Assembly (NCBI RefSeq): GCF_035084215.1
Contig: NC_090359.1
Coordinates: forward strand, 12,276,001 to 12,340,000
DNA length: 64,000 nucleotides
Source of the DNA: Heptranchias perlo
Lineage: Eukaryota
Direction of reading: 5' to 3'
The notes beneath the pieces are model-generated. The model saw only the letters and a list, made by a program, of their open reading frames with translations. It ran no database searches and was not told the origin of the DNA. The first letter of the stretch is position 1, and the number at the start of each line of letters is the position of its first letter. Made by a program: the position numbers and the translations under genes. Positions 6,014 through 33,380 of the stretch are shown one piece after another.

Positions 6014-6057
6014 GATACCAAAGAACTCAACTATCATTTTACCCACCAACCAACACC

Positions 6058-6087: not shown

Positions 6088-7071
6088 TCAATGAGTCGCT
6101 GTTGTGATGCGATTGGATGTCTTTCAGAAAAAATACTCAATGTCTTTAGAATCCTTTTTTTTTCCAATCACTTCCACTGTCCTATTTCTCAAGTTTCTTT
6201 GGAAAAAAAAAGGATTGACCCGCGGTCTGGACTCAACATCAGTGACGGTGCGAACTGCGGGCTGTTAACTGGCAGTAATTGTCTGTCCCAATCAGCCTGA
6301 AGCAGAGTCCGTGGCCCACGGACTCTGACAACATCCACACGTCTCCCACGGAGAGAGGCCTGTGAGGAGAGTGCTGGGGCCGGTCGGTATTGGCGAGCCA
6401 CTTGCCGGCCAATCGAGTGTGGCCCTGCGGAAGTGCTGCAAGCAGGTGCAGAGCACAGAGGAGAGGAGAGCCATCGAGAGGGAAGGAGGGAGAAAGAGGG
6501 AAGGAGGCGAAAAACATCAGGCAGCTGCGAGGGGTGTGCTGCTGCTGTCAGCCTGAAACAGCAGGAAGAGGAGGTCGACGGCGATCGGGGTGGCCGACTG
6601 AAGGTAGGGGGGAGGCAAGAAGATCCTTTTCCAACAGGGGATTCCACCCCCAAGTGTCTGGCCCGTGACAGCTGGAGCTGCCTGGGTGAAGAAACTTTTG
6701 CCATCTGTGGAGGACTGAGCCTAGGCAGCTCCGGCTGTCTGGGAGAAGACATCTCCTCCCCCTGCCCACCGGAAGACTCCACGTTATCGGCCACCCGTGT
6801 ACGTGTACGTTCCTTCCCTCCAGAGACATTTCTGCAGCGGCCCGCCCCTGCAGACTCCCTCCTTCCTCTTTAAGGAACATCCCTCCCTCTCTCTCTTGTG
6901 GTTTCCGCATTTAAAAACAAAAAGGAAAAACGCCCCAGAAAAGGAGCCCCTCTCCCAATAGATCAGTACCATTTTGGGGAGAGGAGGTTTCCTTGGGCTT
7001 TTGGTCCAACAAAAAAAAAGGGAAAATACCTGGAAGACCTAAGATTTGGGGTGGGCGTGGCGTACAAGAGA

Positions 7072-9129
7072 ATGGCAACACCATCTTCGCCAGTGCCGGG
7101 ACCCAGCAGGACGTATGCGGGCGTTACTGCGGCTGCTGCTCCCGCTGCTCGTGCTACTCCTGCTGGCCCGGCGCCATTCCGCCTCGTGACGAGGAAGCAC
7201 GGGGTCAAGGCCTATGCCCACCCCGGCATGACGATTGAGGCCTGCGTGAAGGCCATGGCCGAGGTTGTCGGCCCCTCTGCCATCGTCGCGGCCTCGAAAG
7301 TGTACGGGAAGGTTGTAGTCTTCCTGAGGTCCGAGCGGACGGTGTCCCTGGCCCTTAGCAAGGGGCTCACGGTGGGCGGGACTTTCCTGCCGGTGGACCC
7401 GCTGGAGGCCACCGCGCAGCGGGTGGTGCTGTCAAACGTCCCGCCCTTTCTGCCGGATGAGCTCCTCCTCCCTCACCTGCGTCAACTGGGGGAGGTGAGG
7501 TCGGGGGTAACGCCGCTGTCGCTCGGGCTCAGGGAGACCAGCCTCCATCATGTCTACTCATTCCGTCGCCAGGCCTTTATCAAGCTGGCGTGGGAGGAGG
7601 TTACGGAGGGGGGCTTTAACGCCCTCCATGAGGGGACCGCCTACCGCGTCTTCTGGACGGCAGAGGGTGGGCGGTGCCATGCCTGTAAGGAGGTGGGGCA
7701 CCTGAGGAAGAACTGCCCCGCCTCCCAGGCCGCCAAAGCAGCTCCGGCGGCCGAGGCTGGCGCCGCCACCGCTCCTCCCCCCAAACCCGCCCCCGCGTCG
7801 GGAGAGTCCACTGCGTGGGCGGAGGGTGCCGACGAGGCCTCCGTCGGGGGAGAGGGAGGGAACCCTCGCCCGAAGAAGGCGCGGAAGAAGAGTAGACATC
7901 GGGAGGCTGGTCCCCGGGTTGGAAATCCTTCCAGCCAGCCCGAGGCCGTGGTCGTGACCGCGGCCAAACGACAACTCGCGGTCGCGGCAGAGCCCGGGCT
8001 GGCGGGTATTCAGGAGGGAGCGGAGGGGGGGGCCCCAGCAGACATGGGGCTCGCCCTCCCTCCGCCACCCTCCGGAAAGCAGAAAAGGCGCCGCTCCCTG
8101 GAAGCGGAGGGGAACCCTGCTAAGGGACGGCCCCCCGCGGAAAGGGAGTCGGCGTCGGCGGCGGATCCTGCGACCCCACCCTCCGTTTCCCACCGCCAGC
8201 GGGGGTCATCCACCTCTCGGGGGGAGGAGATCGTGCCCGTGCCTCCCGGGGGGGGGGGGGATGGAGAGACCCTGCCAAAAGGGGGGGGTTGCGGATTCGT
8301 GCACCGATGCGAGCATCCCGTTCACCGGGTCGGGGGTCCTGGGTGCCGGGGCCGAAGGGGCCGGATTCGTCTGCCCTCGGCTGGACCTCTCCCAGGACCT
8401 GCTCGACCTGATGGCGGGATTTAATAGGAACTTATCACCGGCCGGGTCGGTCGGTGGCGACGTGGGTGGGGAGACCCCCTCCTCCCAGTCTCTGGGCATG
8501 GAGCCGGGGGAGGTGGGAGAACTGGAGTACACGTTCTCCCCGGTTTCCCCGGGTTCCCCTTATATCCGGGTGGCAGTTTCCCACCGCTCGGAGGCTGGGA
8601 AGGGACCTCGCCCAGAGCCGCCCTCTGACCCGGACACCCAGGTAGAGCCCGGGGAGGACTCCTCTGCCGACGATCCTGGGGGTGGGATCGTGACAGAGGT
8701 GGGGCCGGCCGGCGCGGCCGTCCCGTTCTCCGCACCCTGTGCGGGGAGTGGGTCGGCCGCGGGCGACGATGATCCGGAGGAGGACGGGGACTCGGTGGAG
8801 GGCACTGGGGAGGATTTGGAGTTCGCCGCCAGTGAGGTGGTGGACACCCTCGTGCCCGGCACCGAGTCTCCCCTCATCCCCGTTGAGGAACTCCGGGATT
8901 TTGTGTCCGGTTGGACCCATCGTTGCGATGGCGTCCGGCTGGCCCTCGAACGTTGGTCGGAGCCGGCGCAATTAATCTGCTCGGTCCGGGCCGCTGTCGC
9001 GTCCGTGACCGCGGAAGAGGACGGCGGCAGGGTCGGGCTGCGCCGGCTCAGATCCCTCCTCACCGGGCTCTTGGGGGGGGGGGGGAGAAAAGGAGGTCGA
9101 CTAGCGGCCCCACTCCCTCCGCGCGTTAG
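7072..9129 (+). pseudogene. Tx1 copy A ORF1 (Gag-like, zinc knuckle CHACKEVGHLRKNC), two frameshifts at G runs
   Basis: Collinear with the intact 680-aa ORF1 at 28856-30898; frame changes at G8 8281-8288 and around G13 9073-9085. Confidence 0.85.
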
Positions 9130-9158
9130 CTTTAAGTTGGTTGCGCTGTGCTCTCGTC

Positions 9159-12100
9159 ATGGAGATAACCATAGCCAGCCTCAACATCAACGGCGGCAGA
9201 GACGCCCGCCGTAGATTTGACAAGTTCTCGGTCCTGCGGGACGGGAAGTATGCGGTGTGCTTTCTGCAGGAAACCCACACCGTTCCGGGAGACGAGGCCA
9301 CGTGGATCCTGGAATGGGGAGGGGGGGTCTACTTGAGTCACCTCGCCAGCGTTTCGAGCGGGGTGGCCATCTTGTTGGCCCCGACTTTTCAGCCGGAGAT
9401 CTTGGGGGTCAAGGAGCCGGTGCCGGGCCGCTTGCTCCACATAGCCCTTCGCCACGGGGACGTGCCGCTTCACCTGGTGAACGTGTACGCCCCCTGGTCC
9501 GGAGCCGAGCAAGTGAGCTTCTTTGAGGAAGTGTCCACTTACCTGAACTCCGTCGACGCCGGCGAGTGCATTATCCTCGGGGGGGATTTTAACCGCACCC
9601 TCGAGGCGAGGGACCGCTCCGGTCCCGCGCGTGCCCGAACGGCGACGGAGAAGTTGAGGGACCTGGTCGGGTCCTTCGACTTGGTGGACGTCTGGCGGAA
9701 TCTCCATCCCGACTCCGGCCAGTTCACCTTTGTGAGGGCCGGAGGGGGGAGCACCAGAATCGACCGCCTGTACGTTTCGCGGGCGTACGCCTCGTGCGTC
9801 CCGTCGGCCTCCATCCGGCCGGTGTCGTGCTCGGACCACCACCTGGTGTGGATGGAGCTCGCTCTGCTCCGCGCCCGGTCGGGGTCCGCGTACTGGCACT
9901 TTAACAACCGGCTGCTGGAGGACGCGCGGTTCCGGGACTCGTTCCGTCTGTTCTGGAGCGACTGGAGAGGGAAGCGGGGAGGCTTCTCCTCCTTGAGGCT
10001 ATGGTGGGACGTGGGCAAGGCTCACGTCCGCCTCTTCTGTCAAGAGTACGCGAGGGGGTCGACTAAGAGGCGGGAGTCCGAGGTCAGGCGGTTGGAGCAG
10101 GAGGTGCTTGGCCTGGAGTCCCGTCTCGGTCAGGCCGCCGAGGATCCGGCCCTGCGGCAGGTGTACGAGGAGAGGAAGGACGCTCTGAGGGACCTGCAAC
10201 TGGTCGGGTCCCGAGGAGCGTACGTGAGGTCGCGGCTCCAGCTCCTGCGGGACCTGGACCGCGGCTCTCCCTTCTACTCGCTGGAAAAGCGGCGGGGGGC
10301 TCGTAAGCAGCTCCTTACGCTGCTGGCCGACGACGGGTCCCTCGTCTCGGACCCGGAGGGAGTCAGGGCCCGTGCTCGATCTTACTACGAGGCTCTGTTC
10401 TCTCCGGATCCGTCCAGCGAGGAGGCGCGCAGAGTTTTGTGGGAGGACCTGCCGAAGGTCGGCCCGGAGGACGCCGAGCGTCTGGACGCTCCGCTCAGTT
10501 TGGCGGAGCTGACCGGCGCCCTCCACCAGCTCTCTAGGGGCAAGTCCCCGGGGCTGGACGGGCTGACCGTGGAGTTCCTCAGGGCCTTCTGGGACGTCCT
10601 GGGGGGCGACTACGCGCGGGTCCTGGGGGAATGTCTGGCGACCGGGGAGATGCCCCTTTCGTGGCGCAGGGCGGTCGTGGTCCTGCTGCCTAAGAAGGGG
10701 GATCTCCGCAACCTTAAAAACTGGCGCCCGGTCTCCCTCCTCAGCACGGATTATAAGGTCTTTGCCAAGGCGATGTCTGCTCGCCTGGGCACCGTGCTGG
10801 CCCACATGATCCACCCCGACCAGTCCTACACGGTCCCGGGCCGGAAGATCCACGATAACATCCACCTGGTCCGGGACCTGATCCACCATTCCCAGAGGGC
10901 TGGTCTGTCGGTCGCCTTCCTTTCCTTAGATCAGGGGAAGGCGTTCGACAGGGTGGATCACGAGTATCTATTCGGGACTCTGCGCGCTTTCGGGTTCGGG
11001 TCGCATTTCGTCGCCCGGATCCGACTTCTGTACGCCGCCGCGGAGTGTCTGATTAAGGTTAACGGATCCTTGACGGCGCCCCTTCGCTTCGGGAGAGGAG
11101 TGCGTCAGGGGTGCCCCATGTCCGGCCAATTATACGCCGTCTGCGTAGAGCCTTTCCTGCGCCTCTTGCGCAAGAGGTTGTCGGGACTGGCTCTGCGCGA
11201 GCCGGACGTGGAGGTCGTCCTTTCGGCTTACGCCGACGACGTGCTCCTCGTGGTCACGGATCCCCTTGACTTGCGGAGGATGCGCGAGTGCCAAGAGGTC
11301 TACTCTGCGGCGTCTTCCGCAAGGATCAACTGGGAGAAATGTTCCGGACTCCTGGTGGGTCAGTGGCGGGTGGACTCCCTGCCGGAGGAGCTCAGGCCTT
11401 TCGCCTGGAGTACCACGCACCTCCGGTACCTGGGAGTCTACCTCGGCCCTGCCGAGGAAGCCTGGCCGGCGAACTGGGAAGAGCTGGAGGCCAAAGTCGC
11501 CGCTCGCCTGGCGCGCTGGACAGGACTGCTCCGAGTGTTATCCTACAGGGGTCGTGTGCTGGTCATAAACCAGCTGGTGGCCGCCATGTTGTGGTACCGG
11601 TTGGTCACTTTGACCCCACCCCCCGAGTTTGTCGCCAACATTCAGAGGAAGTTCGTCGACTTCTTCTGGGCCAGAGGGATGCACTGGGTCGCTGCCGCGG
11701 TCCTGAGTCTCCCGCTTAGGGAGGGCGGTCAGGGGCTGGTGTGCGTCCGCACCCAGGTGGCAACTTTCCGCCTTCGGACGCTGCGGCGATACCTGTACGT
11801 TGAGCGTCCTCTTAGATGGCGTGCGCTGGCGACGTATTTTTTCCGCCAGCTGCACGGCCTGAACGACGACACGCAGCTCCTGTTCATCTCGCTGGTGGGC
11901 GGCCGCATGTCTTTGCAGGAGCTGCCTGTCTTTTACCAGGATCTGCTCAGGGTCTGGAACATGGTCGCCTCCGGTCGGAGCTCATGCCCGTCAGGGGTAG
12001 CGGCCGTCCTGCAGGAGCCGCTGCTCGGGAATCCGTTCCTCCGCGATATCGGCTTCGGCCACTCGCGGCTGTCGGTGCGGAGGGCCGTGGCCGGTCGGGT

Positions 12101-13061
12101 GACCAGAGTCAGGGACGTCCTGGATGGCGGTGGGTCGGGTTGGTTGGAGCCGTGGGCGCTGGCCGCACGGATGTCCTCGTGGCGTGCCGGGGACGCGGCC
12201 ATCGCCATCCGGGCGTTGAAATCGGCGCTCGGCCCTGACTCCACTCGGGATGTGGAGGCGGCTCAGGCGTGCGGAGCCATCCCGTCCGACCTGACCCCCG
12301 TTCGGACGGAGTTCCTCCTCGGCGCCAAACCCCGGAACCTCCCTCGGGGGGCCGCGCCTCACAACTTGAGCCGTCTCTCGGAAATTCCCTCCGTGCTGTT
12401 TCACACCGCGCGGAGGGATTTCCTGTACGGGCTGCTCCTGCACACCCTCCACTTCCTCGCCTTCGTCTCTCGCCCGGACACGCCCTGGCGTGCCATCCTG
12501 CCGTCCGGCGGAGACGGGGGTCCCCAGTGGGGGGCTCTCTACTCAGGGGTCCTCCCGTGTTACTTTGGGGATCTGGGGTGGAGGGTGGCGCACGGAGCAG
12601 TCGCGTGCAACCGGCGGTTACGCCATTTCACGGACACCCAGGCCGCTTGTGATTTCTGCGGCCTGGAGGAGTCCGTGTTCCATCTGTACACGGGGTGTGG
12701 GAGACTGCAGCCCCTGTTCCATTATTTGAAGGGGCTGCTCCTCAAGTTCTGGCTGCATTTCAGTCCCACGCTCCTGATCTTTGGCCGCCCGGTGAGGAGG
12801 GGGGCGGGCAGGTCGGTGGACGTTCTCGTGGGCCTGCTCCTGGGCCTGTCCAAGGTGGCCATCCACAGGTCTAGGATGATCGTGGTCCGTGGGGGCGGTC
12901 GCTCGGCCTGTCTGCCTCTCTTCCGCGGAATGCTCCGCGCCCGGGTGGCCCTGGAGATGGAGCACGCGGTGTCTGCCGGTACGCTCGAGGCTTTCCGCGG
13001 CCGGTGGGCACCGCAGGGGCTGGAGTGCATTCTGGACGAGGAGAATAAAATTTTAATTTGA
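9159..13061 (+). CDS. Tx1 copy A ORF2: AP endonuclease, reverse transcriptase and C-terminal zinc-binding domain (about 1300 aa, uninterrupted)
   Basis: SLNING, LQETH, GGDFN, RIDR, SDHH (EN); KSPGLDG, NWRPVSLL, GVRQGCP, YADD, YLG (RT); CDFCGLEESVFHLYTGC. Confidence 0.95.
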   Translation: MEITIASLNINGGRDARRRFDKFSVLRDGKYAVCFLQETHTVPGDEATWILEWGGGVYLSHLASVSSGVAILLAPTFQPEILGVKEPVPGRLLHIALRHGDVPLHLVNVYAPWSGAEQVSFFEEVSTYLNSVDAGECIILGGDFNRTLEARDRSGPARARTATEKLRDLVGSFDLVDVWRNLHPDSGQFTFVRAGGGSTRIDRLYVSRAYASCVPSASIRPVSCSDHHLVWMELALLRARSGSAYWHFNNRLLEDARFRDSFRLFWSDWRGKRGGFSSLRLWWDVGKAHVRLFCQEYARGSTKRRESEVRRLEQEVLGLESRLGQAAEDPALRQVYEERKDALRDLQLVGSRGAYVRSRLQLLRDLDRGSPFYSLEKRRGARKQLLTLLADDGSLVSDPEGVRARARSYYEALFSPDPSSEEARRVLWEDLPKVGPEDAERLDAPLSLAELTGALHQLSRGKSPGLDGLTVEFLRAFWDVLGGDYARVLGECLATGEMPLSWRRAVVVLLPKKGDLRNLKNWRPVSLLSTDYKVFAKAMSARLGTVLAHMIHPDQSYTVPGRKIHDNIHLVRDLIHHSQRAGLSVAFLSLDQGKAFDRVDHEYLFGTLRAFGFGSHFVARIRLLYAAAECLIKVNGSLTAPLRFGRGVRQGCPMSGQLYAVCVEPFLRLLRKRLSGLALREPDVEVVLSAYADDVLLVVTDPLDLRRMRECQEVYSAASSARINWEKCSGLLVGQWRVDSLPEELRPFAWSTTHLRYLGVYLGPAEEAWPANWEELEAKVAARLARWTGLLRVLSYRGRVLVINQLVAAMLWYRLVTLTPPPEFVANIQRKFVDFFWARGMHWVAAAVLSLPLREGGQGLVCVRTQVATFRLRTLRRYLYVERPLRWRALATYFFRQLHGLNDDTQLLFISLVGGRMSLQELPVFYQDLLRVWNMVASGRSSCPSGVAAVLQEPLLGNPFLRDIGFGHSRLSVRRAVAGRVTRVRDVLDGGGSGWLEPWALAARMSSWRAGDAAIAIRALKSALGPDSTRDVEAAQACGAIPSDLTPVRTEFLLGAKPRNLPRGAAPHNLSRLSEIPSVLFHTARRDFLYGLLLHTLHFLAFVSRPDTPWRAILPSGGDGGPQWGALYSGVLPCYFGDLGWRVAHGAVACNRRLRHFTDTQAACDFCGLEESVFHLYTGCGRLQPLFHYLKGLLLKFWLHFSPTLLIFGRPVRRGAGRSVDVLVGLLLGLSKVAIHRSRMIVVRGGGRSACLPLFRGMLRARVALEMEHAVSAGTLEAFRGRWAPQGLECILDEENKILI

Positions 13062-13606
13062 ACACTTGGTTTTGGTTTGTTTGGTTTTAGTATTTAAGCA
13101 CACACCACACCCCCCCTTCTTATAAAAGGGGGGCCTAACAAAATAAAAAAAAATATAAAAGGAAAAAAAAAATCTGAAAGTTTCTCTTTCTTTCAATCTC
13201 TTGGAATCATAACTTTGAATTATTTGATAATAATTTGATATTTTCACTGAAGTGGCTTTTCATAATCTGGTCAAGTTTATTACTTGTTAGTGATTGTGAT
13301 GTTGAGACAATATTCAAAGCAATCAAGTTGTCTTGAATGAATTTGCAAACCATCCATTGGTCAGAGAAATGGAAATTCCATCCCATGGATGGTGTGAATC
13401 GTCCCCAGTTCTAATATAGAGAATGGGTGTGTCTGAGGATTGGCAGCATGGGGGCATCAACTGGGCAAAGCATTGTGGGATGCATCATTTTTAGTTTTGA
13501 TTCTCATGAAATGTTGTTTGGTAAAATTCAGGATATTCAGCGAGAATGAGAGGCAGTGAAGATTACTGAATGCAATGTCACCCACACAAACATCTCCATT
13601 TGTGTC

Positions 13607-13975
13607 AGCTGTGGCTCAGTGGCAGCACTCTCACCTCAGAGTCAGAAGATTGTGGGTTCAAGTCATCATCCAGAGACTTGAGCACATAATCTAGGCTGAC
13701 TAAGGGAGTGCTGTACTGTCGGAGGTGCCGTCTTTTGGATGTGATATTAAATCGAGGCCTCATCTGCTCTCTCAGGTGGACGTAAAATATCCCACAGCAC
13801 TATTTCGAGGAAGAGCAGCGGAGTTCTCCCCAATATCTGGACCAATATTTATCCCTCAACTAACATCACTAAAACAGATTATCAGGTCAATATTTCATTG
13901 CTGTTTTTGGGTCCTTGCTGGAGGCAAATTGACTGCCGCATTTCTTACCTTACAACAGTGACTACACCTCAAAGG
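13607..13975 (+). mobile_element. tRNA-derived SINE with Deu domain (SacSINE1/DeuSINE-like)
   Basis: A box gtggctcagtgg, B box ggttcaagtc, Deu-like core ggtgccgtcttttggatgtgatattaaatcgagg...gtaaaatatcccacagcact; second fragment at about 61061-61196. Confidence 0.75.
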
Positions 13976-15338: not shown

Positions 15339-18287
15339 CTAGTCCCAATTGCCTGCACTTGGCCCATATCCCTCGATACCCATCTTCCCCATGTAACTGT
15401 CCAAATGCTTTTTAAAAGACAAAATTGTACCCGCCTCTACTACTGCCTCTGGCAGCTCGTTCCAGACACTCACCACCCTTTGAGTGAAAAAATTGCCCCT
15501 CTGGATCCTTTTGTATCTCTCCCCTCTCACCTTAAATCTGTGCCCCCTCGTTATAGACTCCCCTACCTTTGGGAAAAGATTTTGACTATCGACCTTATCT
15601 ATGCCCCTCATTATTTTATAGACTTCTATAAGATCACCCCTTAACCTCCTACTCTCCAGGGAATAAAGTCCCAGTCTGTCTAACCTCTCCCTGTAAGTCA
15701 AACCATCAAGTCCCAGTAGCATCCTAGTAAATCTTTTCTGCACACTTTCTAGTTTAATAATATCCTTTCTATAATAGGGTGACCAGAACTGTACATAGTA
15801 CTCCAAGTGTGGCCTCACCAATGCCCTGTACAACTTCAACAAGACATCCCAACTCCTGCATTCAATGTTCTGACCAATGAAACCAAGCATGCTGAATGCC
15901 TTCTTCACCACCCTATCCACCTGTGACTCCACTTTCAAGGAGCTATGAATCTGTACTCCTAGATCTCTTTGTTCTATAACTCTCCCCAACGCCCTACCAT
16001 TAACGGAGTAGGTCCTGGCCCGATTCGATCTACCAAAATGCATCACCTCACATTTATCTAAATTAAACTCCATCTGCCATTCATCGGCCCACTGGCCCAA
16101 TTTATCAAGATCCCGTTGCAATCCTAGATAACCTTCTTCACTGTCCACAATGCCACCAATCTTGGTGTCATCTGCAAACTTACTAACCATGCCTCCTAAA
16201 TTCTCATCCAAATCATTAATATAAATAACAAATAACAGCGGACCCAGCACCGATCCCTGAGGCACACCGCTGGACACAGGCATCCAGTTTGAAAAACAAC
16301 CCTCGACAACCACCCTCTGTCTTCTGTCGTCAAGCCAATTTTGTATCCAATTGGCTACCTCACCTTGGATCCCATGAGATTTAACCTTATGTAACAACCT
16401 ACCATGCGGTACCTTGTCAAATGCTTTGCTGAAGTCCATGTAGACCACGTCTACTGCACAGCCCTCATCTATCTTCTTGGTTACCCCTTCAAAAAACTCA
16501 ATCAAATTCGTGAGACATGATTTTCCTCTCACAAAACCATGCTGACTGTTCCTAATTAGTCCCTGCCTCTCCAAATGCCTGTAGATTCTGTCCCTCAGAA
16601 TACCCTCTAACAACTTACCCACTACAGATGTCAGGCTCACTGGTCTGTAGTTCCCAGGCTTTTCCCTGCCGCCCTTCTTAAACAAAGGCACAACATTTGC
16701 TACCCTCCAATCTTCAGGCACCTCACCTGTAGCGGTGGATGATTCAAATATCTCTGCTAGGGGACCCGCAATTTCCTCCCTCACCTCCCATAACGTCCTG
16801 GGATACATTTCATCAGGTCCCGGAGATTTATCTACCTTGATGCGCGTTAAGACTTCCAGCACCTCCCTCTCTGTAATATGTACACTCCTCAAGACATCAC
16901 TATTTATTTCCCCAAGTTCCCTAACATCCATGCCTTTCTCAACCGTAAATACCGATGTGAAATATTCATTCAGGATCTCACCCATCTCTTGTGGTTCCGC
17001 ACATAGATGACCTTGTTGATCCTTAAGAGGCCCTACTCTCTCCCTTGTTACCCTTTTGCCCTTTATGTATTTGTAGAAGCTCTTTGGATTCACCTTTGCC
17101 TGATCTGCCAAAGCAATCTCATATCCCCTTTTTGCCCTCCTGATTTCTCTCTTAACTCTACTCCGGCAATCTCTATACTCTTCAAGGGATCCACTTGATC
17201 CCAGCTGCCTATGCATGTCATATGCCTCCTTCTTATTTTTGACTAGTGCCTCAATCTCCCGAGTCATCCAAGGTTCCCTACTTCTACCAGCCTTGCCCTT
17301 CACTTTATAAGGAATGTGCTTACCCTGAACCCTGGTTAACACACTTTTGAAAGCCTCCCACTTACCAGACGTCCCTTTGCCTGCCAACAGACTCTCCCAA
17401 TCAACTTCTGAAAGTTCCTGTCTAATACCATCAAAATTGGCCTTTCCCCAATTTAGAATTTTAACTTTTGGGCCAGACCTATCCTTCTCCATAGCTATCT
17501 TAAAACTAATGGAATTATGATCACTGGTCCCAAAGTGATCCCTCACTAACACTTCTGTCACCTGCCCTTCCTTATTTCCCAAGAGGAGGTCAAGTTTTGC
17601 CCCCTCTCTAGTCGGGCCATCCACATACTGAATGAGAAATTCCTCCTGAATACACTCAACAAATTTCTCTCCATCCAAGCCCCTAATGCTATGGCTGTCC
17701 CAGTCAATGTTGGGAAAGTTAAAGTCCCCTACTATTACCACCCTATTTTTCTTGCAGCTGTCTGTAATCTCCTTACATATTTGCTCCTCAATTTCCCGTT
17801 GACTATTTGGGGGTCTGTAGTACAATCCTATCAAAGTGATCTCTCCCTTCTTATTTTTCAGTTCTACCCATATGGACTCAGTGGGCGAACCCTCGGATAT
17901 ATCCCCTCTCACTACTGCCGTGATGTTCTCCCTAATCAAGAACGCAACTCCCCCTCCTCTCTTACCTCCTGCTCTATCTTTCCTATAGCATCTGTACCCT
18001 GGAACATTGAGCTGCCAGTCCTGCCCCTCCCTTAGCCATGTTTCAGTAATAGCTATAACATCCCAGTCCCATGTACCCATCCATGCCCTGAGTTCATCTG
18101 CCTTGCCCATCAGACTTCTTGCATTGAAATAAATGCAGTTTAATCTAGTCTTCCCTTGGTCTTTGCCCTGCTTTCTCAGACCATCTGTCCGGTCATGTTC
18201 TGTACACTCTCCCTTACTGCCTTTTGTTTCTGTCACCACTTTATTTCCCACTGACTTCCTGCATCGGTTCCCATCCCCCTGCCACAT
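15339..18287 (-). CDS. CR1 ORF2 (APE endonuclease + RT, 982 aa, intact)
   Basis: YFNARSL, ITETW, YYRPP, GDFN, SDH; QHGF, DFSKAFD, PQGSVLGP, FADD. Confidence 0.95.
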   Translation of the reverse strand: MWQGDGNRCRKSVGNKVVTETKGSKGECTEHDRTDGLRKQGKDQGKTRLNCIYFNARSLMGKADELRAWMGTWDWDVIAITETWLREGQDWQLNVPGYRCYRKDRAGGKRGGGVAFLIRENITAVVRGDISEGSPTESIWVELKNKKGEITLIGLYYRPPNSQREIEEQICKEITDSCKKNRVVIVGDFNFPNIDWDSHSIRGLDGEKFVECIQEEFLIQYVDGPTREGAKLDLLLGNKEGQVTEVLVRDHFGTSDHNSISFKIAMEKDRSGPKVKILNWGKANFDGIRQELSEVDWESLLAGKGTSGKWEAFKSVLTRVQGKHIPYKVKGKAGRSREPWMTREIEALVKNKKEAYDMHRQLGSSGSLEEYRDCRSRVKREIRRAKRGYEIALADQAKVNPKSFYKYIKGKRVTRERVGPLKDQQGHLCAEPQEMGEILNEYFTSVFTVEKGMDVRELGEINSDVLRSVHITEREVLEVLTRIKVDKSPGPDEMYPRTLWEVREEIAGPLAEIFESSTATGEVPEDWRVANVVPLFKKGGREKPGNYRPVSLTSVVGKLLEGILRDRIYRHLERQGLIRNSQHGFVRGKSCLTNLIEFFEGVTKKIDEGCAVDVVYMDFSKAFDKVPHGRLLHKVKSHGIQGEVANWIQNWLDDRRQRVVVEGCFSNWMPVSSGVPQGSVLGPLLFVIYINDLDENLGGMVSKFADDTKIGGIVDSEEGYLGLQRDLDKLGQWADEWQMEFNLDKCEVMHFGRSNRARTYSVNGRALGRVIEQRDLGVQIHSSLKVESQVDRVVKKAFSMLGFIGQNIECRSWDVLLKLYRALVRPHLEYYVQFWSPYYRKDIIKLESVQKRFTRMLLGLDGLTYRERLDRLGLYSLESRRLRGDLIEVYKIMRGIDKVDSQNLFPKVGESITRGHRFKVRGERYKRIQRGNFFTQRVVSVWNELPEAVVEAGTILSFKKHLDSYMGKMGIEGYGPSAGNWD

Positions 18288-19226
18288 TAGTTTAAACCCT
18301 CCCCAACAGCACTAGCAAACACTCCCCCTAGGACATTGGTTCCAGTCCTGCCCAGATGCAGACCGTCCAATTTGTACTGGTCCCACCTCCCCCAGAACCG
18401 GTTCCAATGGCCCAGGAATTTGAATCCCTCCCTCTTGCACCATCTCTCAAGCCACGTATTCATCTTAGCTATCCTGTCATTCCTACTCTGACTAGCCCGT
18501 GGCACTGGTAGCAATCCTGAGATTACTACCTTTGAGGTCCTACTCTTTAGTTTAACTCCTAACTCCCTAAATTCAGCTTGTAGGACCTCATCCTGTTTTT
18601 TACCTATATCGTTGGTGCCTATATGCACCACGACAACTGGCTGTTCACCCTCCCCCTCCAGAATGTCCTGCAGCCGCTCCGAGACATCCTTGACCCTTGC
18701 ACCAGGGAGGCAACATACCATCCTGGAGTCTCGGTTGCGTCCGCAGAAACGCCTGTCTATTCCCCTTACAATCGAGTCCCCTATCACTATAGCTCTGCCA
18801 CTCTTTTTCCTGCCCTCCTGTGCAGCAGAGCCAGCCACGGTGCCATGAACCTGGCCACTGCCACCTTCCCCTGGTGAGCCATCTCCGCCAACAGTATCCA
18901 AAACGGTATACCTGTTTTGGAGGGAGATGACCGCAGGGGACCCCTGCACTGCCTTCCTACTCTTCCTCTGTCTGTTGGTCACCCATTCACTATCTCCCTC
19001 AGTAATTTTTATCTGCGGTGTGACCAACTCACTGAACGTGCTATCCACGACTTTCTCAGCATCGCGGATGCTCCAAAGTGAGTCCATCCGCAGCTCCAGA
19101 GCCGTCAAGCAATAGCTGCAGCTGGACACACTTCCCGCAGGTGAAGGAATCAGGGATACAGGAAGGAGCCCTGAATTCCCACATCCCACAAGAGGAACAT
19201 GACACGGCGCTGGGATCTCCTGCCAT
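18287..19226 (-). pseudogene. CR1 ORF1 (N-terminal CxxC..CxxC, SGNH/GDSL esterase domain), frameshift near 19110
   Basis: ATG at 19226 reads MAGDPSAVSCSSCGMW..TCGKC; a different frame continues LTALELRMDSL..GDSIVR..HIGTND..DGLHL. Confidence 0.8.
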
Positions 19227-19544
19227 GACTTAACCCTTAAATTAGCTTAAGAACAACTACAATGTCAAGAGAGAAAAAAAGGAAAGAAAAACTACTTACC
19301 ACTCCCTTTAAGGAGTTTACTCCTTTAAATTGTTCTCAATTTAGAGAATGTTAACTACACTAGGGACCTTGATTCACTAAAAAATAAACGCTACTTCCTA
19401 TAAGACCTGCAGACCTTCCCTTTCCTTTTACTTCAGTTACTGCAGATAAGGAGAAATACTCACCTGAACCTACTCACCAATCAGGTGCCTCCCCTGTGTC
19501 GCGTCCCGATCTGATTCCTGACGTCACTTCGAACTCGGTCGCAG

Positions 19545-19759: not shown

Positions 19760-20252
19760 GGAACAAAATGTTACAGCAGCTGATTTTGCATCATTAATGA
19801 GTTAAACAGTTGATAATATGCAGTACTAATAGGAACAGTAACTCATTACTGTATTGTTCTTTGCATTGAAATCAGCAGTAATCATTTTACTGCATAAATA
19901 CAATTTACACTCAAGGCAGACACATTGGCCCTCAACACCCAAGTCACTACATTGATATGACCCCAGAAGAAAAAATGTCATAGGGCAGAATCTCACCCTA
20001 AAGCCAATACATAGCCCAATGTAATTTGTTACAACAGCTGAATTATGTTAATCTGAAAAATAAGCAATCACTCAATTTACAAGGAGCCAAAACCCAGTCT
20101 TCTGTAACAGTTTATTTCCAGTTACTATTACATTTCACATCAAGAGCCCAGGTCTCACAGCTCTTAGTACAAAGTCACCATTGCTACAGGATAGGGGTTC
20201 TTCAGACTATAAACAGGAGTACTGAACAATAAGCTTTATCCCTGCAGTCAGT

Positions 20253-22810
<2,558 letters not shown>

Positions 22811-22885
22811 CTTTAAATTAACTTTAACAAAACTAAACAACTCTATTGAAGCAAGAAACTGAAAAACAGCCACCCAAAGCTCCAT

Positions 22886-23050
22886 ATTTATACTGCTGGT
22901 TAATCCTGGGCGTGGCAGCCTAGATGATGAGTGACAGTTGGCAATACCCAATCAGAAATTACATCCTCTCTCAGAACACCAATCAAGAAAAGGGAGGAGG
23001 GGAGATGACACCCAGAGCCAGTCAGAACTTTGAAGGAGGAGCATCATTGG
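22886..23050 (-). promoter_or_regulatory. Ferritin copy 1 promoter: TATAAAT (22892-22886) and CCAAT boxes (22948, 22979, 23046)
   Basis: Motifs seen directly; two CCAAT boxes 31 bp apart, typical of NF-Y promoters. Confidence 0.65.
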
Positions 23051-23106
23051 CTGACAATTCAATAAAGATCCAAATTGCTTTGACTTTCCTCAAACTGTAA
23101 AATCTG

Positions 23107-23282
23107 TTTCCGTGACCGGTGGGCACCGCAGGGACTGGAGTGCATCCTGGATCGATGTAATAAAATTATAATTTGACACTTATTTTGGGTTTATTGATTT
23201 ACTGCACATAAACACAACCAACCCCCCCTCCCCTTCTTATAAAAGGGGGGCCTAAAACACAAAAAAAGGAAAAGCAAAAAAA
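23107..23282 (+). mobile_element. Tx1 3' stub (last ~25 codons of ORF2, 3'UTR, A tail)
   Basis: RWAPQGLECILD-coding sequence, cttataaaaggggggcctaa hairpin, A-rich tail. Confidence 0.9.
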
Positions 23283-23570
23283 CCATGGCTGCTCTTCCAT
23301 CCCACACTCCAAAGAAAAAAAAATCTGATCGTGACCATATTCTTGACCATAATCGACCTTTCTTTGATGGACCAATAAGGGAGACTCTGGGTTGCCCCAG
23401 GGTCACCAAACATAAACCATCACAAGTGGCCCTCTCAGGGCACCACTAATATTGGATGGTCCAATCAAACTGAAAAGAGACCAAAATAAGCATCAAGTGC
23501 CACCAAAAACAACAGGATACTTTCCCAATTAAATCAGGATTCTATTATTGATGTCTGAAAGACAGTCTAT

Positions 23571-23653: not shown

Positions 23654-25651
23654 TTGACCATAATGGACCAAATTGTCAATTGGTGGATCTGCCCCCATCC
23701 CATCGGTTATGGTCACTGATCGTGACGGTTCAAAGATCCAGAACCACAGGTTTAATTGTTGTTTGCGGGTCAGTGTCTTTGAATAATTCTGGATGGATCC
23801 GTGTGTTGGTTATTTGGCAAGTAGCTGCGGGTTTGAGGCAACATCCAAACAGATCAGAGCCTGTGAACAGCAACCAACAGCGAGTCAGGCGAATGGAAAG
23901 TGGGTGTGATGAACGTGTTAAACACAAGTCCTTCAATACTCCATCAATTCTAGGGTCAGTGAGCATCTGTACACACATCGGCTGGAAAGTGAAGGGGGCC
24001 ACGGCATGTTGAGTTCTTGTTTTGTCATCATGACATTTTACAAACAATAAAATGCAGAGCACTCCACGGGGAAGAGACTGTGGACCATTGACTGAAGGGA
24101 TTTGGGGTGGGGGGGCGGGTTTGTTGTTGGGAGGGATTGCGGTGAGAGGCAAACACTGTGTGTAGTGTTGGTTGTATATACAGTGAGCGACAGTGGTGAA
24201 CAGACTATCTGGTATTTCCTGGGTTTGGTAATCCCTTGTTTCAATGATTAATCTCTTGTACTTTTTGGACAGTCAAACACCAAGTGGAAAGAGTCGAGTG
24301 GTGAATTTTCTCATTAGAAAGGGGAGTTACTGATATTTCCCTAAATCCGGTCAGGGAAGGATGGGGCCCCGTGGATATTTTGTGTTCCAGATCACATCAG
24401 AATACTGTCGGATCAACAACAAACAGCAGGCTAAAAAAAAATCAAAGGTGGAACCTAGTGAAGGAAAGATGAAGCAACGAAAAGTGGGGTCGATGGACTG
24501 ATCCGATCATATGATCCCTGTGTGAGAATAACCTGAACATCACTGGTGCAAACTCAGTTAAAGCTTTAAACAGACCAAGTAGTTGGTGGCTTAGCCTTTA
24601 ATTAGATGGCTCTATTCTCCAACTCTTCAGTAGACTTACAAGTGGCAGTTTTGGCAATTAGGATCTAGTGTTATTTGGTCCCAGGCCACATAAGATTACA
24701 CAAAGATTGTATTCGCAAGGAGAGGGGAATGGGGCAAGAACTGTTTAATGAAACAGAATCCAGCAAGGGAAACTTAGAGGGGCTCTTAGATTTGCAACAG
24801 CAAATGGAAGTATTTTAGAGGCTATGGGGTAGAGGATATAAAAGGTGCATGAGGTGAACAGAGACTGGAAAATAAAAATTGAGATTGAAACAAATAGCAG
24901 GAGCTGGACCAAAGTTCTGCACAGGAAGAAAAAGATGGGCTGAAGAGAAGGAGGAAAGAGCCAGGTAACCCTAGCAGGAACAATTGGAGATTTGGTCTTA
25001 CTTTGCTCCAGGATTTTTGTAACTACTTAAATTTGAATACCTGCTTCAGGGAACACTTCCCTCATGTCCTACAATGGACAAGTCAGCAGCAATGTGTGGG
25101 GTTGTTTATTCAGAAGGTTAATTACTGTAATCACCATTGATGCCCACATCCCATGAACAAATAGTAATAAAAAAATGCACACTCTCCAAAAGGGATTCAA
25201 GCCTATGTGGAGGAAGAGGTCTTACTGTAATCAGATTACACTTTAATCTCTACTACAGAACACCAAATATTGAAAGCTGTTAGGTACAAATCTAATTTTG
25301 GCCTGATGGCCATCCTGGGCTGCTACAAAACCAAATTAAGCCTTCTGGAGGGGAAGGGGTTAAAACATCCATGTGCCCAAACAAATCAGATTTTATCACG
25401 GTGAAAACCTATTTCTTAGATTTTTTTTTTTGTTTGACGCAAGGCCACGTGCATTGGTGTTAGAATGTGCTCAATTACTGAAGAAAAGGAACCAGTTCAA
25501 CATCAAAATGTTTTATTTCAGCTGCAAGAACACTCAACTACAATGTTTGGAAGTTAATCTTAGACTTTGAATTCCATTCCCAGTTCAGAGAGATGGCAAC
25601 ATAAAACTTCAATACACAAGTTGAATATCTGCAACATGGACAACAGTCCAG

Positions 25652-27878
<2,227 letters not shown>

Positions 27879-28012
27879 CTTAACTTTTACTGTTAACAGA
27901 AACCTCACTTCAAACACCACTGCATGAAACATGCAGATGGGAGCTTGAGCATTTTGTGACTTGAAAGACTTCCCTCACAAGTTCTTGTATTGAGACTACT
28001 GGGACAGCCTGC

Positions 28013-28147
28013 ATTTAAACCAGGAATGGACAGCACCAATGATGATTGACAATCCCTGATAGCCAATCAGGAATCTTCCCTGAATCCAGGCACCAATTAA
28101 CAAAGGACAGGGCTCTGGGGGAGAGATTGATATCCAGAGCCAATCAG
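28013..28147 (-). promoter_or_regulatory. Ferritin copy 2 promoter: TATA-like TTTAAAT (28019-28013) and four CCAAT boxes (28036, 28063, 28093, 28140)
   Basis: Motifs seen directly; layout parallels the copy 1 promoter. Confidence 0.6.
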
Positions 28148-28855
28148 AGCTTTGCAATACAGACCAGCAAGGCCTTGGAGGTGTTTGTGGCTGGACTGCC
28201 ACTGAGTGGAGTGGAGAGCAGAGAGAGCAGGCCCTTGCCTGGGTCCCTTGGGGAGAAGGAGAAGGAGAAGGAGAAAGAAGGAGAAACCACCATCAACAAG
28301 GAGGGAGGGAGAAGGAGAAAAAGAGCACCAACCAGTGGGAGGAAGAGGTGGTCGGTGCAGTGAGGTGTGTCGGCTGAAGGTAGGGGGAGGAAGAAGACTT
28401 CAGAGGACAGGGGTCCCCCCCAAGTGTCTGGCCCGGGACAGCTGGAGCTGCCTGGGTGAAGTTACTTTCTTTTTCAAATCTTTGGAGGACTGAGCCTAGG
28501 CAGCTCCAGCTGTCTAGGGGAAGACATCTCCTCCCCCTGCCCACCGGAAGACAGGCAGAAGAGGATCCACCTTTTAAGGTGCAACCCCGCCCCTCTTCCA
28601 CCCACTTCTGCAGCAGCCTACCCCTGCAGACTCCCTCCTTCCCATTCTGCCATCCATCCCTCCCACCTTCTCCTGCTCTCTGGGATATTCCCTTGCTCTC
28701 CGGGGTATTCTGGGAATATATAAAAACAACAAAGGGGCCCTCTCCCAACCAAGCACTGGGATTCGGGGAGAGAGGTATCCTCAAGAATTCTTTTAAAAAA
28801 AGGCCAATTTCCATCCAAAGGCCTGAGACTTGGGGTGGGTGTGGCTCTTTAGGTC

Positions 28856-30898
28856 ATGGCTTCACCATCTTCGCCGGTGCCGGGACCCAGCAGGACGTAT
28901 GCGGCGGTTACCTCGGGGGCCGCTCCCACAGTTCGTGCCGCTCCTGCTGGGCCGGCGCCTTTCCGCCTCATTACGAGGAAGCATGGGGTGAAGAGCTACG
29001 CCCACCCCAACATGACCATTGAGGCCTGCGTAAAGGCCATGGCCGAGGTTGTCGGCCCCTCGGCCATCGTCGCGGCCTCAAAAATGTACGGGAGGGCGGT
29101 GTTCTTCCTGAGGTCCGAGCGGGCGGTGTCCCTGGCCCTTAGTAAGGGGCTCACGGTGGGCGGGACCTTCCTGCCGGTGGACCCGCTGGAGGCCACCGCG
29201 CAGCGGGTCATTTTATCTAACGTCCCGCCTTTCCTGTCGGACGAGCTCCTCCTCCCCCACCTACGTCAACTGGGGGAGGTGAGGTCGGGGGTAACGCCGC
29301 TGCCGCTCGGACTCAGGGAGAACAGCCTCCGGCATGTTTACTCCTTCCGTCGCCAGGCATTCGTCAAGCTGGCACGGGAGGAGGTTACGGAGGGGGGCTT
29401 TAACGCCCTCCACGAGGGGACCCCTTACCGCGTCTTTTGGACGGCAGAGGGTGGGCGGTGCCATGCCTGTAAGGAGGTGGGGCACCTGAAGAGGAACTGC
29501 CCTGCCTCTCAGGCCGCCAAAACAGCTACGGCGGCCGGGGCTGGCGCCGCCACCGCTCCTCCCCCCAACCCCGCCCCCGCGTCGGGAGAGTCAACTGCGC
29601 GGGTGGAGGTTGGCGTCGAGGCCTCCGCCAGGGGGGAGGAGGGGAACCCTCGCCAGAGAAAGGCGCAGAGAAAGAGGAAGAATCTAGAGGCTGGTCCCCG
29701 GGACAGAGAAGATCTCAGTCAGCCCGAGGCCGTGACCGCGGCCAGTCAACATCTTGCGGTCGCGACAGAGCCCGGGCTGGCGGGTGATCAGGAGGGAGCG
29801 GAGGCGGGGGTCCCAGCAGACATTGAGTCCCCCCTCCCTCCGCGACCCTCCTGGAAGAAAAAGAGGCACCACTCCCCGGAAGCGAACGGGCTCCCTGCTA
29901 AGGGACGGCCCCCCGTGGAAGGGGAGTCGGTGCCGGTCGCGGATCCTGCGGCCCCGCCCGTGACATCCGAACAGCGGCGGGGGTCATCCACCTCTCGGGG
30001 GGAGGAGATCGTGCCCGTGCCTCCCGGGGGGGATGGAGAGACCCCGCCGATAGGGGGGGTCGCGGATCCGCATTTACCCGACACTACCCTGTTCACCGGG
30101 TCGGGGGTCCTGGGTGCCGGGGTGGGCGAGGCCGTTGCGGCCGAATTCGTCTGCCCCCGGCTCGACCTCTCCCAGGACCTGCTCGACCTGGTGGTGGGTT
30201 TTAACCAGAATATCTCGCCGGCCGGGTCGGTCGTTGGCGACGTGGGTGGGGGGACCCCCTCCTCTCAGTCTCTGGGCTCGGAGCCGGGGGAGGTGGGAGA
30301 ACTTGAGTACACGTTCTCCCCGGTTTCCCCGGGTTCCCCTTATATCCGGGTGCCGGTCTTTCACCGCTCGGTGGCTGGGGAGGGTCCCCGCCCGGCGCCG
30401 CCGTCTGACTCGGACCCCCCGGTGGAGCCCGGGGAGGACTCCTCTGCCGACGATCCTGGGGGTGGGATCGTGGCGGAGGCGGGGCCGGCCGGCGCGGCCG
30501 TCTCGTTCTCAGCACCCTGTGCGGGGGCTGGGTCGGCCGCGGGCGACGATGACCCGGAGGAGGACGGGGACTCGGTGGTGGGCACTGGAGAGGATTTAGA
30601 GTTCGCCGCCAGTGAGGTGGTGGACGCCCTCGTGCCCTGCACCGAGTCTCCCCTCATCCCCGTTGAGGAACTCCGGGATTTTGCGTCCGGTTGGAGCAGT
30701 CGTCGCGATGGCGTCCGGCTGGCCCTCGACCGTTGGTCGGAGCCGGCGCAGTTAATCCGCTCGGTCCTGGCCGCCGTCGCGTCCGTGGCCGCGGAAGGGG
30801 ACGGCGGCGGGGTCGGGCTGCGTCGGCTCAGATCCCTCCTCACCGGGCTCTTGAGGGAGTGGCGGTCGACTAGCGGCCCCGCTCCCTCCGCGCGTTAG
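28856..30898 (+). CDS. Tx1 copy B ORF1 (680 aa, CCHC zinc knuckle, low-complexity C-terminal half)
   Basis: Uninterrupted ORF; VILSNVPPF, CHACKEVGHLKRNC. Confidence 0.9.
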   Translation: MASPSSPVPGPSRTYAAVTSGAAPTVRAAPAGPAPFRLITRKHGVKSYAHPNMTIEACVKAMAEVVGPSAIVAASKMYGRAVFFLRSERAVSLALSKGLTVGGTFLPVDPLEATAQRVILSNVPPFLSDELLLPHLRQLGEVRSGVTPLPLGLRENSLRHVYSFRRQAFVKLAREEVTEGGFNALHEGTPYRVFWTAEGGRCHACKEVGHLKRNCPASQAAKTATAAGAGAATAPPPNPAPASGESTARVEVGVEASARGEEGNPRQRKAQRKRKNLEAGPRDREDLSQPEAVTAASQHLAVATEPGLAGDQEGAEAGVPADIESPLPPRPSWKKKRHHSPEANGLPAKGRPPVEGESVPVADPAAPPVTSEQRRGSSTSRGEEIVPVPPGGDGETPPIGGVADPHLPDTTLFTGSGVLGAGVGEAVAAEFVCPRLDLSQDLLDLVVGFNQNISPAGSVVGDVGGGTPSSQSLGSEPGEVGELEYTFSPVSPGSPYIRVPVFHRSVAGEGPRPAPPSDSDPPVEPGEDSSADDPGGGIVAEAGPAGAAVSFSAPCAGAGSAAGDDDPEEDGDSVVGTGEDLEFAASEVVDALVPCTESPLIPVEELRDFASGWSSRRDGVRLALDRWSEPAQLIRSVLAAVASVAAEGDGGGVGLRRLRSLLTGLLREWRSTSGPAPSAR

Positions 30899-30927
30899 GT
30901 TTAAGTAGGTTGCGCTGTGCTCTTGCC

Positions 30928-32962
30928 ATGGAGATAACCATAGCCAGCCTCAACATCAACGGCGGCAGAGACGCCCGCCGTAGATTTGACAAGTTCTCGG
31001 TCCTGCGGGACGGGAAGTATGCGGTGTGCTTTCTGCAGGAAACCCACACCGTTCCGGGAGACGAGGCCACGTGGATCCTGGAATGGGGAGGGGGGGTCTA
31101 CTTGAGTCACCTCGCCAGCGTTTCGAGCGGGGTGGCCATCTTGTTGGCCCCGACTTTTCAGCCGGAGATCTTGGGGGTCAAGGAGCCGGTGCCGGGCCGC
31201 TTGCTCCACGTAGCCCTTCGCCACGGGGACGTGCCGCTTCACCTGGTGAACGTGTACGCCCCCTGGTCCGGAGCCGAGCAAGTGAGCTTCTTTGAGGAAG
31301 TGTCCACTTACCTAAACTCCGTCGACGCCGGCGAGTGCATTATCCTCGGGGGGGATCTTAACCGTACCCTCGAGGCGAGGGACCGCTCCGGTCCCGCGCG
31401 TGCCCGAACGGCGACGGAGAAGTTGAGGGACCTGGTCGGGTCCTTCGACTTGGTGGACGTCTGGCGGAATCTCCATCCCGACTCCGGCCAGTTCACCTTT
31501 GTGAGGGCCGGAGGGGGGAGCACCAGAATCGACCGCCTGTACGTTTCGCGGGCGTACGCCTCCTGCGTCCCGTCGGCCTCCATCCGGCCGGTGTCGTGCT
31601 CGGACCACCACCTGGTGTGGATGGAGCTCGCTCTGCTCCGCGCCCGGTCGGGGTCCGCGTACTGGCACTTTAACAACCGGCTGCTGGAGGACGCGCGGTT
31701 CCGGGACTCGTTCCGTCTGTTCTGGAGCGACTGGAGAGGGAAGCGGGGAGGCTTCTCCTCCTTGAGGCTATGGTGGGACGTGGGCAAGGCTCACGTCCGC
31801 CTCTTCTGTCAAGAGTACGCGAGGGGGTCGACTAAGAGGCGGGAGTCCGAGGTCAGGCGGTTGGAGCAGGAGGTGCTTGGCCTGGAGTCCCGTCTCGGTC
31901 AGGCCGCCGAGGATCCGGCCCTGCGGCAGGTGTACGAAGAGAGGAAGGACGCTCTGAGGGACCTGCAACTGGTCGGGTCCCGAGGAGCGTACGTGAGGTC
32001 GCGGCTCCAGCTCCCGAACACGGCTCTCCCTTCTTCTACTCGCTGGAAAAGCGGCGGGGGGCCCGTAAGCATCTCCTTACGCTGCTGGCAGACGACGGGT
32101 CCCTCGTCTCGGACCCGGAGGGATTCAGGGCCCGGGCTCGATCTTACTACGAGGCTCGATTCTCTCCGGAGCCGTCCAGTGAGGAAGCGCGCAGAGTTTT
32201 GTGGGAGGACCTGCCAAAGGTCAGCCCGGAGGACGCCGACCGGCTGGACGCTCCGCTGAGTCTGGCTCGGAGGGCTGCTCCTCACAACTTGAGCTGTCTC
32301 GGAAATTCCCTCCGTGCCTTTTCACTCCGCGCGGAGGTATTTCCTGTACGGGCTGCTCCTGCACACACTCCACTTCCTCGCCCTCGTCTCTCGCCCGGAC
32401 ACGCCCTGGCCTGCCGTCCGGCAGAGGCGGGAGTCCCCAGATGGGGGGGCTCTCCACTCGGGGATCCTCCCGTGTTACATCGGGCATCTGGGGTGGAGAG
32501 TGTTGCACGGAGCAGTCGCGTGCAATAGGCGTTTACCCCATTTTACGGACTCCCAGGCCGCCTGCAATTTCTGCGGCCTGGAGGAGTCCGTGTTTCATTT
32601 GTTCACGGGGTGTGGGAGACTGCAGCCCCTGTGATTATTTGGAGGGGCTGCTCCTCAGGTTCTGGCTGCAATTCAGTCCCACGCTCCTGATCTTTGGCCG
32701 CCCGGTGAGGAGGGGGGCGGGCAGGCCGGCGGACGTCCTCGTGGGCCTGTCCAAGGTGGCCATCCACAGGTCCAGGTTGCTTGCGGCCTGTGGGGGCGGT
32801 CGCTCGGACTGTCTGCCTCTCTTCCGCGGAATGCTCCGCGCCCGGGTGGCCCTGGAGATGGAGCACGCGGTGTCTGCCGGTACGCTTGAGGCTTTCCGCA
32901 ACCGGTGGGCACCGCAGGGGCTGGAGTGCATCCTGAACGAGGAAAATAAAATTATAATTTGA
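30928..32962 (+). pseudogene. Tx1 copy B ORF2 remnant (intact EN, frameshifts, about 1.8 kb RT deletion)
   Basis: EN almost identical to copy A up to ~32010; no YADD region; C-terminus split across frames. Confidence 0.9.
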
Positions 32963-33044
32963 AACTGGTTTTGGTTTTTCTTTGGGATTTTTGCACATAA
33001 AAACACCCCAAATCCCCCTCCTTTTAAAAGGGGGGCCTAAAAAA

Positions 33045-33380
33045 TGTCGCTGTTGGGAATGGAAAAAAGTCGCGAAAAAATCCTGGCTGCTAAAAACAGC
33101 AAAAAGGTCACTGCTTTGATGCGATTGGATGTCTTTCAGACTCATCAGAAAAAGAGTAGCTGATAAACCCCCGGCTGCTCTTCCATCCCACACTCCTGAG
33201 CTGAGCGGAGTGGTGAAAATAGTAAAAAACTGTTTTTGATCCAACTCAATGTCTTTCGGATGCTCCTTTCGTTCAATCACTTCCATTGTCCTATTTCATA
33301 AATTTCTAAAAGAAAAAATAAGGAGTCACTGTTGGGATACGATTGGATGTCTTTCAGACAGACCATCAATCCATCCAGGA
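33045..33380 (+). repeat. Stack of short modules separated by A-rich runs, between two Tx1 elements
   Basis: GTCRCTG...GATTGGATGTCTTTCAGA at 33107-33140 and 33323-33358 (partial at 33046); modules shared with 6093-6214 and 23287-23310. Confidence 0.75.

Follow-up and report, generated by a model that had tools for sequence, protein, structure and literature searches.

What decides where short A-tailed sequence modules recur beside Tx1 retrotransposons: are they a preferred insertion target, or cargo that the element carries? The question is raised by a 64,000-nucleotide stretch of the Heptranchias perlo genome (3.25 Gb), positions 12276001-12340000 of contig NC_090359.1 (hereafter C38), which we call the window. 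The window contains two genes related to the zona pellucida gene ZP3 and two ferritin genes, every one on the minus strand, and directly upstream of each of the four lies a Tx1 element or fragment, oriented head-to-head with the gene. A prediction made from these letters alone (the original prediction) listed a 35-bp motif, an 80-bp unit and a third module at Tx1 junctions. It proposed that they reflect either repeated insertion into one CCAAT-containing target or transduced tags analogous to the 5′ tags of HeT-A. Our analysis indicates that Tx1, a long interspersed nuclear element (LINE), probably inserts preferentially near the promoters of the multicopy ZP3-like, ZP4-like and ferritin genes and carries pieces of these promoters behind its A tail.

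The modules derive from ZP3-like promoters

The predicted motif strings are present in the window and exceed chance: the 19-mer core of the 35-bp motif has 122 exact matches in the genome and a reversed control has none, with 95 of the first 100 listed matches falling on C38 between 9.1 and 17.7 Mb. At 18 of 30 loci read, the motif directly follows a ZP3 segment comprising the TATA box, E-box and CCAAT box and precedes the 80-bp unit; 15 of these 18 loci continue into a host tandem repeat, not into Tx1. Because this arrangement is shared and largely free of Tx1, the motif and unit at 6093-6214, taken originally for A-tailed inserts, are the native promoter of the minus-strand ZP3-like gene, and their A tracts are genomic rather than insert tails. 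This type 1 promoter spans 6065-6214 on the minus strand, in an order identical to that of Tx1-free paralogs, with the sequence CACCTG at 6074-6079, which we take to be E-box-like, what are presumably CCAAT boxes, the 35-bp motif at 6093-6128, and, at 6135-6214, the 80-bp unit, whose A tract is genomic. Module 3 has 73 genome matches; in a second type of ZP3 promoter (type 2, six loci read) the 80-bp unit follows it immediately. Each of the three modules is a fragment of a ZP3-like promoter, and together they do not form a family of Tx1 5′ tags. Their host contexts, described as unrelated, proved in each case to be either the promoter of a ZP3-like or ferritin gene or the leader of a Tx1 element.

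Away from promoters, the modules sit behind the 3′ end of Tx1, between two A tails and within the target-site duplication (TSD), a placement that identifies them as short 3′ transductions. Outside the promoter cluster, 8 of 9 copies of module 3 and 4 of 5 copies of the 35-bp motif come directly after a Tx1 3′ end, which excludes an unrelated dispersed repeat. The motif is thus both target and cargo, found in Tx1-free promoters as well as behind Tx1 3′ ends.

The stack of modules near 33 kb (33041-33322, plus strand) is a series of 3′ tags, mainly ZP3-promoter pieces, at the 3′ end of a Tx1 copy (copy B). Within it, module 3 and the 80-bp unit belong to one continuous 127-bp piece of promoter type 2 (33181-33307, 87% identical). 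Nor do the modules as a group precede the neighbouring mini Tx1 (33323-34199, plus strand): only the motif at 33323-33358 is part of it, beginning its leader, whereas the stack belongs to copy B. In every stack copy that we read, the mini-element is present and so is the ZP3 3′ end beyond it; the stack is a single event spread by segmental duplication, and the common downstream end rules out its independent mobility. An inverted form of the motif proposed at 23547-23570 could not be established, with only ~11 bases shared. In contigs of another sample, from a run that may contain DNA, A-tail junctions fall at 6116, 6149, 6203 and 6234.

Dispersed Tx1 copies carry promoter tags

Exact matches to the Tx1 3′ end number 733 in the genome. 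Seventy of the first 71 listed, on C1-C3, were read; one failed to align and 22 lacked a clean TSD (the element exceeded the locus, or no match was found), leaving 47 copies with a clean TSD. Of these, 21 carry one to four short pieces between A tails; the pieces lie on the 3′ side of the element, within a TSD of 10-19 bp (mode 14). A 9.2-kb library of promoter and leader zones from ZP3-like, ZP4-like and ferritin genes accounts for 18 of these 21 copies and for 25 of their 30 pieces; the reversed control, run on an earlier 8.5-kb library, matched 0 of 30 pieces. The three remaining tags are 8-15 nt long and by eye resemble the ZP3 promoter.

A single long unmapped tag, searched blind, was found at ~40 places in the genome, mostly on C23, just upstream of genes encoding a signal peptide, trefoil, ZP-N and ZP-C domains (ZP4-like). 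The ZP4-like promoter has 31 exact matches, and at least 28 such promoters lie on C23; ten were read (C23 and C1594) at 3 kb, one of them at 6 kb. It is the origin of part of the leader of the window's copy A (6261-6363, 79%), the preceding part of which (6216-6259) matches a further locus, ST, described below. C23 itself carries a very large egg-coat cluster of the ZP4-like kind at 2.6-29.6 Mb.

At 43 places, an A run is joined to the base right after the ZP3 TATA box. The tags of 15 such dispersed copies range from ~13 to 323 nt with scattered ends, and one further tag measures 8 nt. The upstream flank of the ferritin promoter, which in native form makes up the 3′ flank of copy A (13175-13600, plus strand; empty site L336 on C43), often serves as a tag, for example at L283 and L288. 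Two tags (L039 and L056) had been considered as ZP3 exon 2, but RNA joints place them in intron 1. Tags of less than ~20 nt that are followed by the same sequence, as at L375, may instead be TSDs left by the insertion of a tail alone into the same nick. The A tails of the 47 copies contain 5.3% G, 1.1% T and 0.2% C, which could stem from slippage or from mixed tailing, an activity of non-canonical polymerases.

Host-derived leaders and seamless 5′ junctions

A 25-mer of the Tx1 5′ untranslated region (UTR) has 155 genome matches, 82 of the first 100 listed being on C38. Full-length copies, on C38 and at ST, begin with host leaders drawn from the sense ZP3 TATA box and exon 1, from the divergent ZP3 or ferritin promoter, or from ST intron 1. 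These leaders are 5′ transductions without A tails. The ST locus (L179 on C1124; L123 on C13) is an apparent chimeric gene in which a different first exon is joined to ZP3 intron 1; it is ZP3-derived, is duplicated near the ends of several chromosomes and has an empty paralog. Its first exon has zero cover in four sequencing runs, none of them on record as RNA.

In the ST paralogs, all ten added elements read are full length and have a seamless leader junction, at five different nicks, which with their new tails fall within ~500 bp. Arrays are head-to-tail and grow 5′-ward by insertion in front of a resident copy; of eight ST arrays followed to their ends, seven close with an element bearing the same tail. 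The seamless 5′ junctions carry duplications of 100-465 bp, and one of 73 bp lies at the ZP3 TATA site; a precise 5′ junction with a host leader is also found at L390. The idea that new copies are completed by drawing on the resident neighbour was discarded, as the single-nucleotide polymorphism profiles of 30 long elements gave no clear signal of it. At L254 (C38, ~16.073 Mb), Tx1 elements lead away from a single ZP3 promoter on both sides.

Such junctions, together with the recurrence of identical nicks, are what one would expect if RNA-guided homing were the main force, with leader and tag pairing with matching promoter DNA much as R1 and R2 use flanking rRNA. Yet elements jump among the unrelated promoters of ZP3, ST, ferritin and ZP4, and truncated copies with plain TSDs reach promoters as well. 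We therefore find homing of this kind unlikely as the main force; it probably accounts for the junctions rather than for the choice of site.

Tx1 lands around promoters

Landing sites were surveyed in 664 kb of C38, comprising the window and three further blocks, two of which were picked to include known arrays. Of the 24 Tx1 blocks there, 19 are no more than 600 bp from a ZP3 TATA box or ferritin ATG, a zone amounting to 4.0% of Tx1-free DNA; the remaining five are paralogous and represent a single insertion near a G-protein-coupled receptor (GPCR) gene. Counted by target, 20 of 26 ZP3 and ferritin promoter ends are occupied, versus 1 of 44 matches to the transfer RNA (tRNA) region and 0 of 6 matches to the GPCR gene. 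We consider it likely that the preferred landing zone consists of a few hundred bases around these promoters. The broader region of C38 (9.1-17.7 Mb) holds many dozens of ZP3-like promoters amid ferritin genes, tRNA arrays and GPCR genes.

Insertion into a preferred target, as first proposed, holds to the extent that the motif is uninterrupted in Tx1-free promoters and has been struck repeatedly; the target is, however, not one site but several unrelated promoters, between which Tx1 jumps in both directions (C32; B16 50598). At the 47 dispersed nick sites the consensus is only a non-A base before the nick and AA after it (non-A/AA), with no strict target sequence and no significant excess of CCAAT (p about 0.10), GC or CpG. 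A CCAAT-box target, and with it the single CCAAT site of the original prediction, is rejected.

The same distribution might arise without any targeting, through random insertion, survivorship beside strong oocyte promoters, and inflation of the counts by duplication and gene conversion. The 33-kb stack is indeed one duplicated event, the presence of the same deleted Tx1 element in three different 5′ contexts points to recombination, and tags report active sources only. Survivorship of active sources is insufficient, because promoters, TATA boxes included, have also received short dead copies that are flanked by TSDs, among them a 215-bp dead-on-arrival Tx1 with a TSD directly behind a ferritin TATA box and the truncated copy at 23107 in the window. 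A ZP4-like promoter, too, contains an A-tailed duplication. Against this model also stand the many distinct nicks with new tails within ~500 bp at the ST paralogs, and the background density of dispersed copies (0.12-0.20 per Mb on C2-C3, at ordinary sites), which predicts well below one event in the ~21 kb of promoter zone sampled. An origin without targeting is accordingly improbable.

Tags are linked in cis to their elements

Of the 15 dispersed copies with a TATA tag, 12 share one common 3′-UTR haplotype, versus 4 of 70 background copies. On C38, a copy with this type of 3′ UTR and intact open reading frames (ORFs; 1319 and 719 aa) joins a ZP3 gene through its A tail, with the junction at the TATA box, and genomic sources with a matching flank are present for the TATA, ST and ferritin tags. 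Tags are linked in cis to element haplotypes. The suggestion that Tx1 transports tags was right as to the cargo, but the tags lie at the 3′ end inside the TSD and derive from host promoters.

Linkage to haplotypes and the presence of genomic sources both count against capture at the RNA level, in which reverse transcription would begin on short adenylated promoter transcripts and jump to the Tx1 tail, as does the start of the TATA tag at the TATA box itself, upstream of the expected transcript start. That tags mostly follow the direction of local transcription, and that some lack a source in the assembly, would suit such capture, which we nevertheless judge very unlikely. The analogy with HeT-A, whose tags would be produced by promoter activity at the 3′ end of an element lying upstream, finds a counterpart in the head-to-tail arrays but is scarcely credible, as the module tags do not come from an upstream element's 3′ end and are host promoter sequence lying 3′ of the element inside the TSD, even in 5′-truncated copies.

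A model of promoter-directed insertion

Preferential insertion near egg-gene promoters can be set out as a cycle. A host promoter, in sense or divergent orientation, would transcribe Tx1; the RNA would end at a variable point 8-320 nt beyond the A tail and receive a new tail, so that the promoter pieces likely arise by short read-through. A weakly specific endonuclease would reach these promoters through open chromatin or by way of a bound factor, and annealing of the host-derived leader to the target would give the seamless 5′ junction. Each round into another promoter would add one tag, making a stack a record of successive landing sites, while segmental duplication and recombination between Tx1 copies would multiply and shuffle single events. 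The preference likely reflects that these promoters are the most open and active in oocytes, and Tx1 likely uses egg-gene promoters for its own copying there. ZP genes are presumably oocyte-expressed in this species; the ZP3-like genes are spliced and very deeply covered in two sequencing runs that we guess to be RNA, of a tissue that is not on record.

Several points weigh against this model. Transcription of Tx1 from host promoters is presumed, and oocyte expression of ferritin and ST is assumed. The tag library was assembled from zones noticed in the same data, and the 24 surveyed blocks are not independent: collapsing paralogs by eye leaves ~20 types of junction, of which two are not at promoters. 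Most copies genome-wide are at ordinary sites, so that the preference is partial. The L305 tag is antisense ZP3 exon 1, which breaks a strict rule of orientation. Exact searches with three tag starts found no source for the ZP4-promoter tags and one ST-intron tag; these sources may be lost, polymorphic or unassembled.

Taken as one joint reading, Tx1 would be a vertebrate LINE specialised on the strongest oocyte promoters: it would home to egg-coat promoters, be transcribed bidirectionally, form head-to-tail arrays, log its hops as 3′ tags and build its 5′ UTR from successive ZP4-like, ZP3-like and ferritin captures, with recombination amplifying and shuffling the egg-coat clusters that shelter it. 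For this full combination we see the case as evenly balanced.

Comparison with known systems

The ORF2 product of copy A has Pfam matches to Exo_endo_phos (APE endonuclease) and RVT_1, and its reverse transcriptase (RT) region (residues 480-900) is 65% identical to the Xenopus TX1 149-kDa protein (a pairwise comparison, no tree); among the matches listed, a stingray protein has the highest identity. A candidate zinc knuckle in ORF1 scores below the curated cut-off (zf-CCHC, E 0.005), and the ESM Atlas returned unnamed endonuclease-RT clusters only. The element thereby resembles the Tx1 clade (Xenopus Tx1L; Keno, Kibi, Koshi and Tx1-Mar), for which target preference and tandem insertion have been described (PMC4494074). 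The targets that this account describes are U2 small nuclear RNA (snRNA) genes, microsatellites and transposons, whereas here several unrelated protein-coding promoters are used under a consensus that goes no further than the one above. The strict target sequence of Keno and Tx1L is absent, and clade membership does not require it.

Serial 3′ transduction is known from L1, where serial tags trace source loci (PMC4859970), and L1 and SVA are described as having two A tracts within one TSD, as here; SVA 5′ transduction is a related system. The Tx1 tags differ in being very short, in their scattered ends, in their frequency (21 of 47 copies) and in that nearly all sources belong to one host-promoter class. 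Annealing of a leader at the target is described for R1 (PMC2718515), and R1 and R2, at 28S rRNA genes, share with Tx1 the host leader with a precise 5′ junction; Tx1 differs from them in having no single fixed site, polymerase II gene targets and leaders of hundreds of bases. Drosophila HeT-A also forms head-to-tail arrays with short tags, which by the account in bioRxiv 10.1101/782904 derive from the upstream element's 3′ promoter, whereas those of Tx1 are host DNA from downstream.

A choice of promoter position rather than sequence is, by the accounts available, also made by TRE5-A at tRNA genes. Tf1 does likewise at polymerase II promoters. Both are other element classes in other hosts, and in our region tRNA genes go unused. 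The single parts (serial 3′ transduction, leader annealing and target preference) are already known, and their combination is apparently new: on polymerase II egg-gene promoters it is absent from the literature searched, a weak negative given that Repbase, most subscription journals and supplements lay outside the search.

A LINE requires germ-line expression to survive, and Tx1 appears to secure it from egg-gene promoters that are redundant and very active, a niche that parallels, for polymerase II, that of R1 and R2 in ribosomal DNA. Because its tags preserve in readable form the source loci of many generations, a single genome allows direct tests of how a LINE chooses its targets, captures promoters and turns over its 5′ UTR. 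Tx1 also suggests a route by which very large egg-coat gene clusters get rearranged.

Other features of the window

ZP3-like gene copy 1 (3219-6064, minus strand; ZP-N and ZP-C Pfam matches) has its TATA box at 6058-6064, its ATG at 6013 and intron 1 at 4729-5611, with GT-AG joints in RNA contigs. Head-to-head with it lies Tx1 copy A (6216-13140, plus strand), which has an intact ORF2 (9105-13061, endonuclease and RT) and a frameshifted ORF1. The 3′ end of the element (13100-13140) contains a putative hairpin of a C run and a G run right before the tail, with AATAAA ~90 nt upstream. A LINE of the CR1/L2 type follows at 15339-19246 on the minus strand; its ORF1 is esterase-like and its ORF2 encodes 990 aa.

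Ferritin gene 1 and its promoter, assigned by translation, occupy 20249-23106 on the minus strand. In this promoter sits a 5′-truncated Tx1 of ~150 bp followed by an A tail, a module-3 tag (23283-23310) and a second A tail (23107-23327 in all, plus strand), bounded by an 8-bp duplication (23099-23106 and 23320-23327). Ferritin gene 2 and its promoter (25644-28150, minus strand) were likewise assigned by translation, with a weak exon-1 match to Pfam Ferritin under the curated cut-off. Copy B, head-to-head with this gene, spans 28151-33040 on the plus strand and has an internally deleted ORF2.

The A tail of the mini Tx1 abuts the 3′ end of ZP3-like gene copy 2 (34203-37069, minus strand; ZP-N and ZP-C matches). 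At 36800-37069, the ZP3 TATA box and start of exon 1 form an A-tailed tandem duplication without a Tx1 body, and a 6-bp repeat is expanded in the first copy. The promoter of this gene contains a truncated Tx1 followed by more A-tailed pieces (37101-37450, plus strand).

Rfam and ARAGORN found no snRNA or tRNA in the modules; the two tRNAs and one U2 fragment that they gave for the window all lie outside them. This 5′-truncated U2 snRNA fragment (53957-54110) stands directly behind an A tail and may represent the 3′ terminus of a Keno-type element that had inserted into U2.

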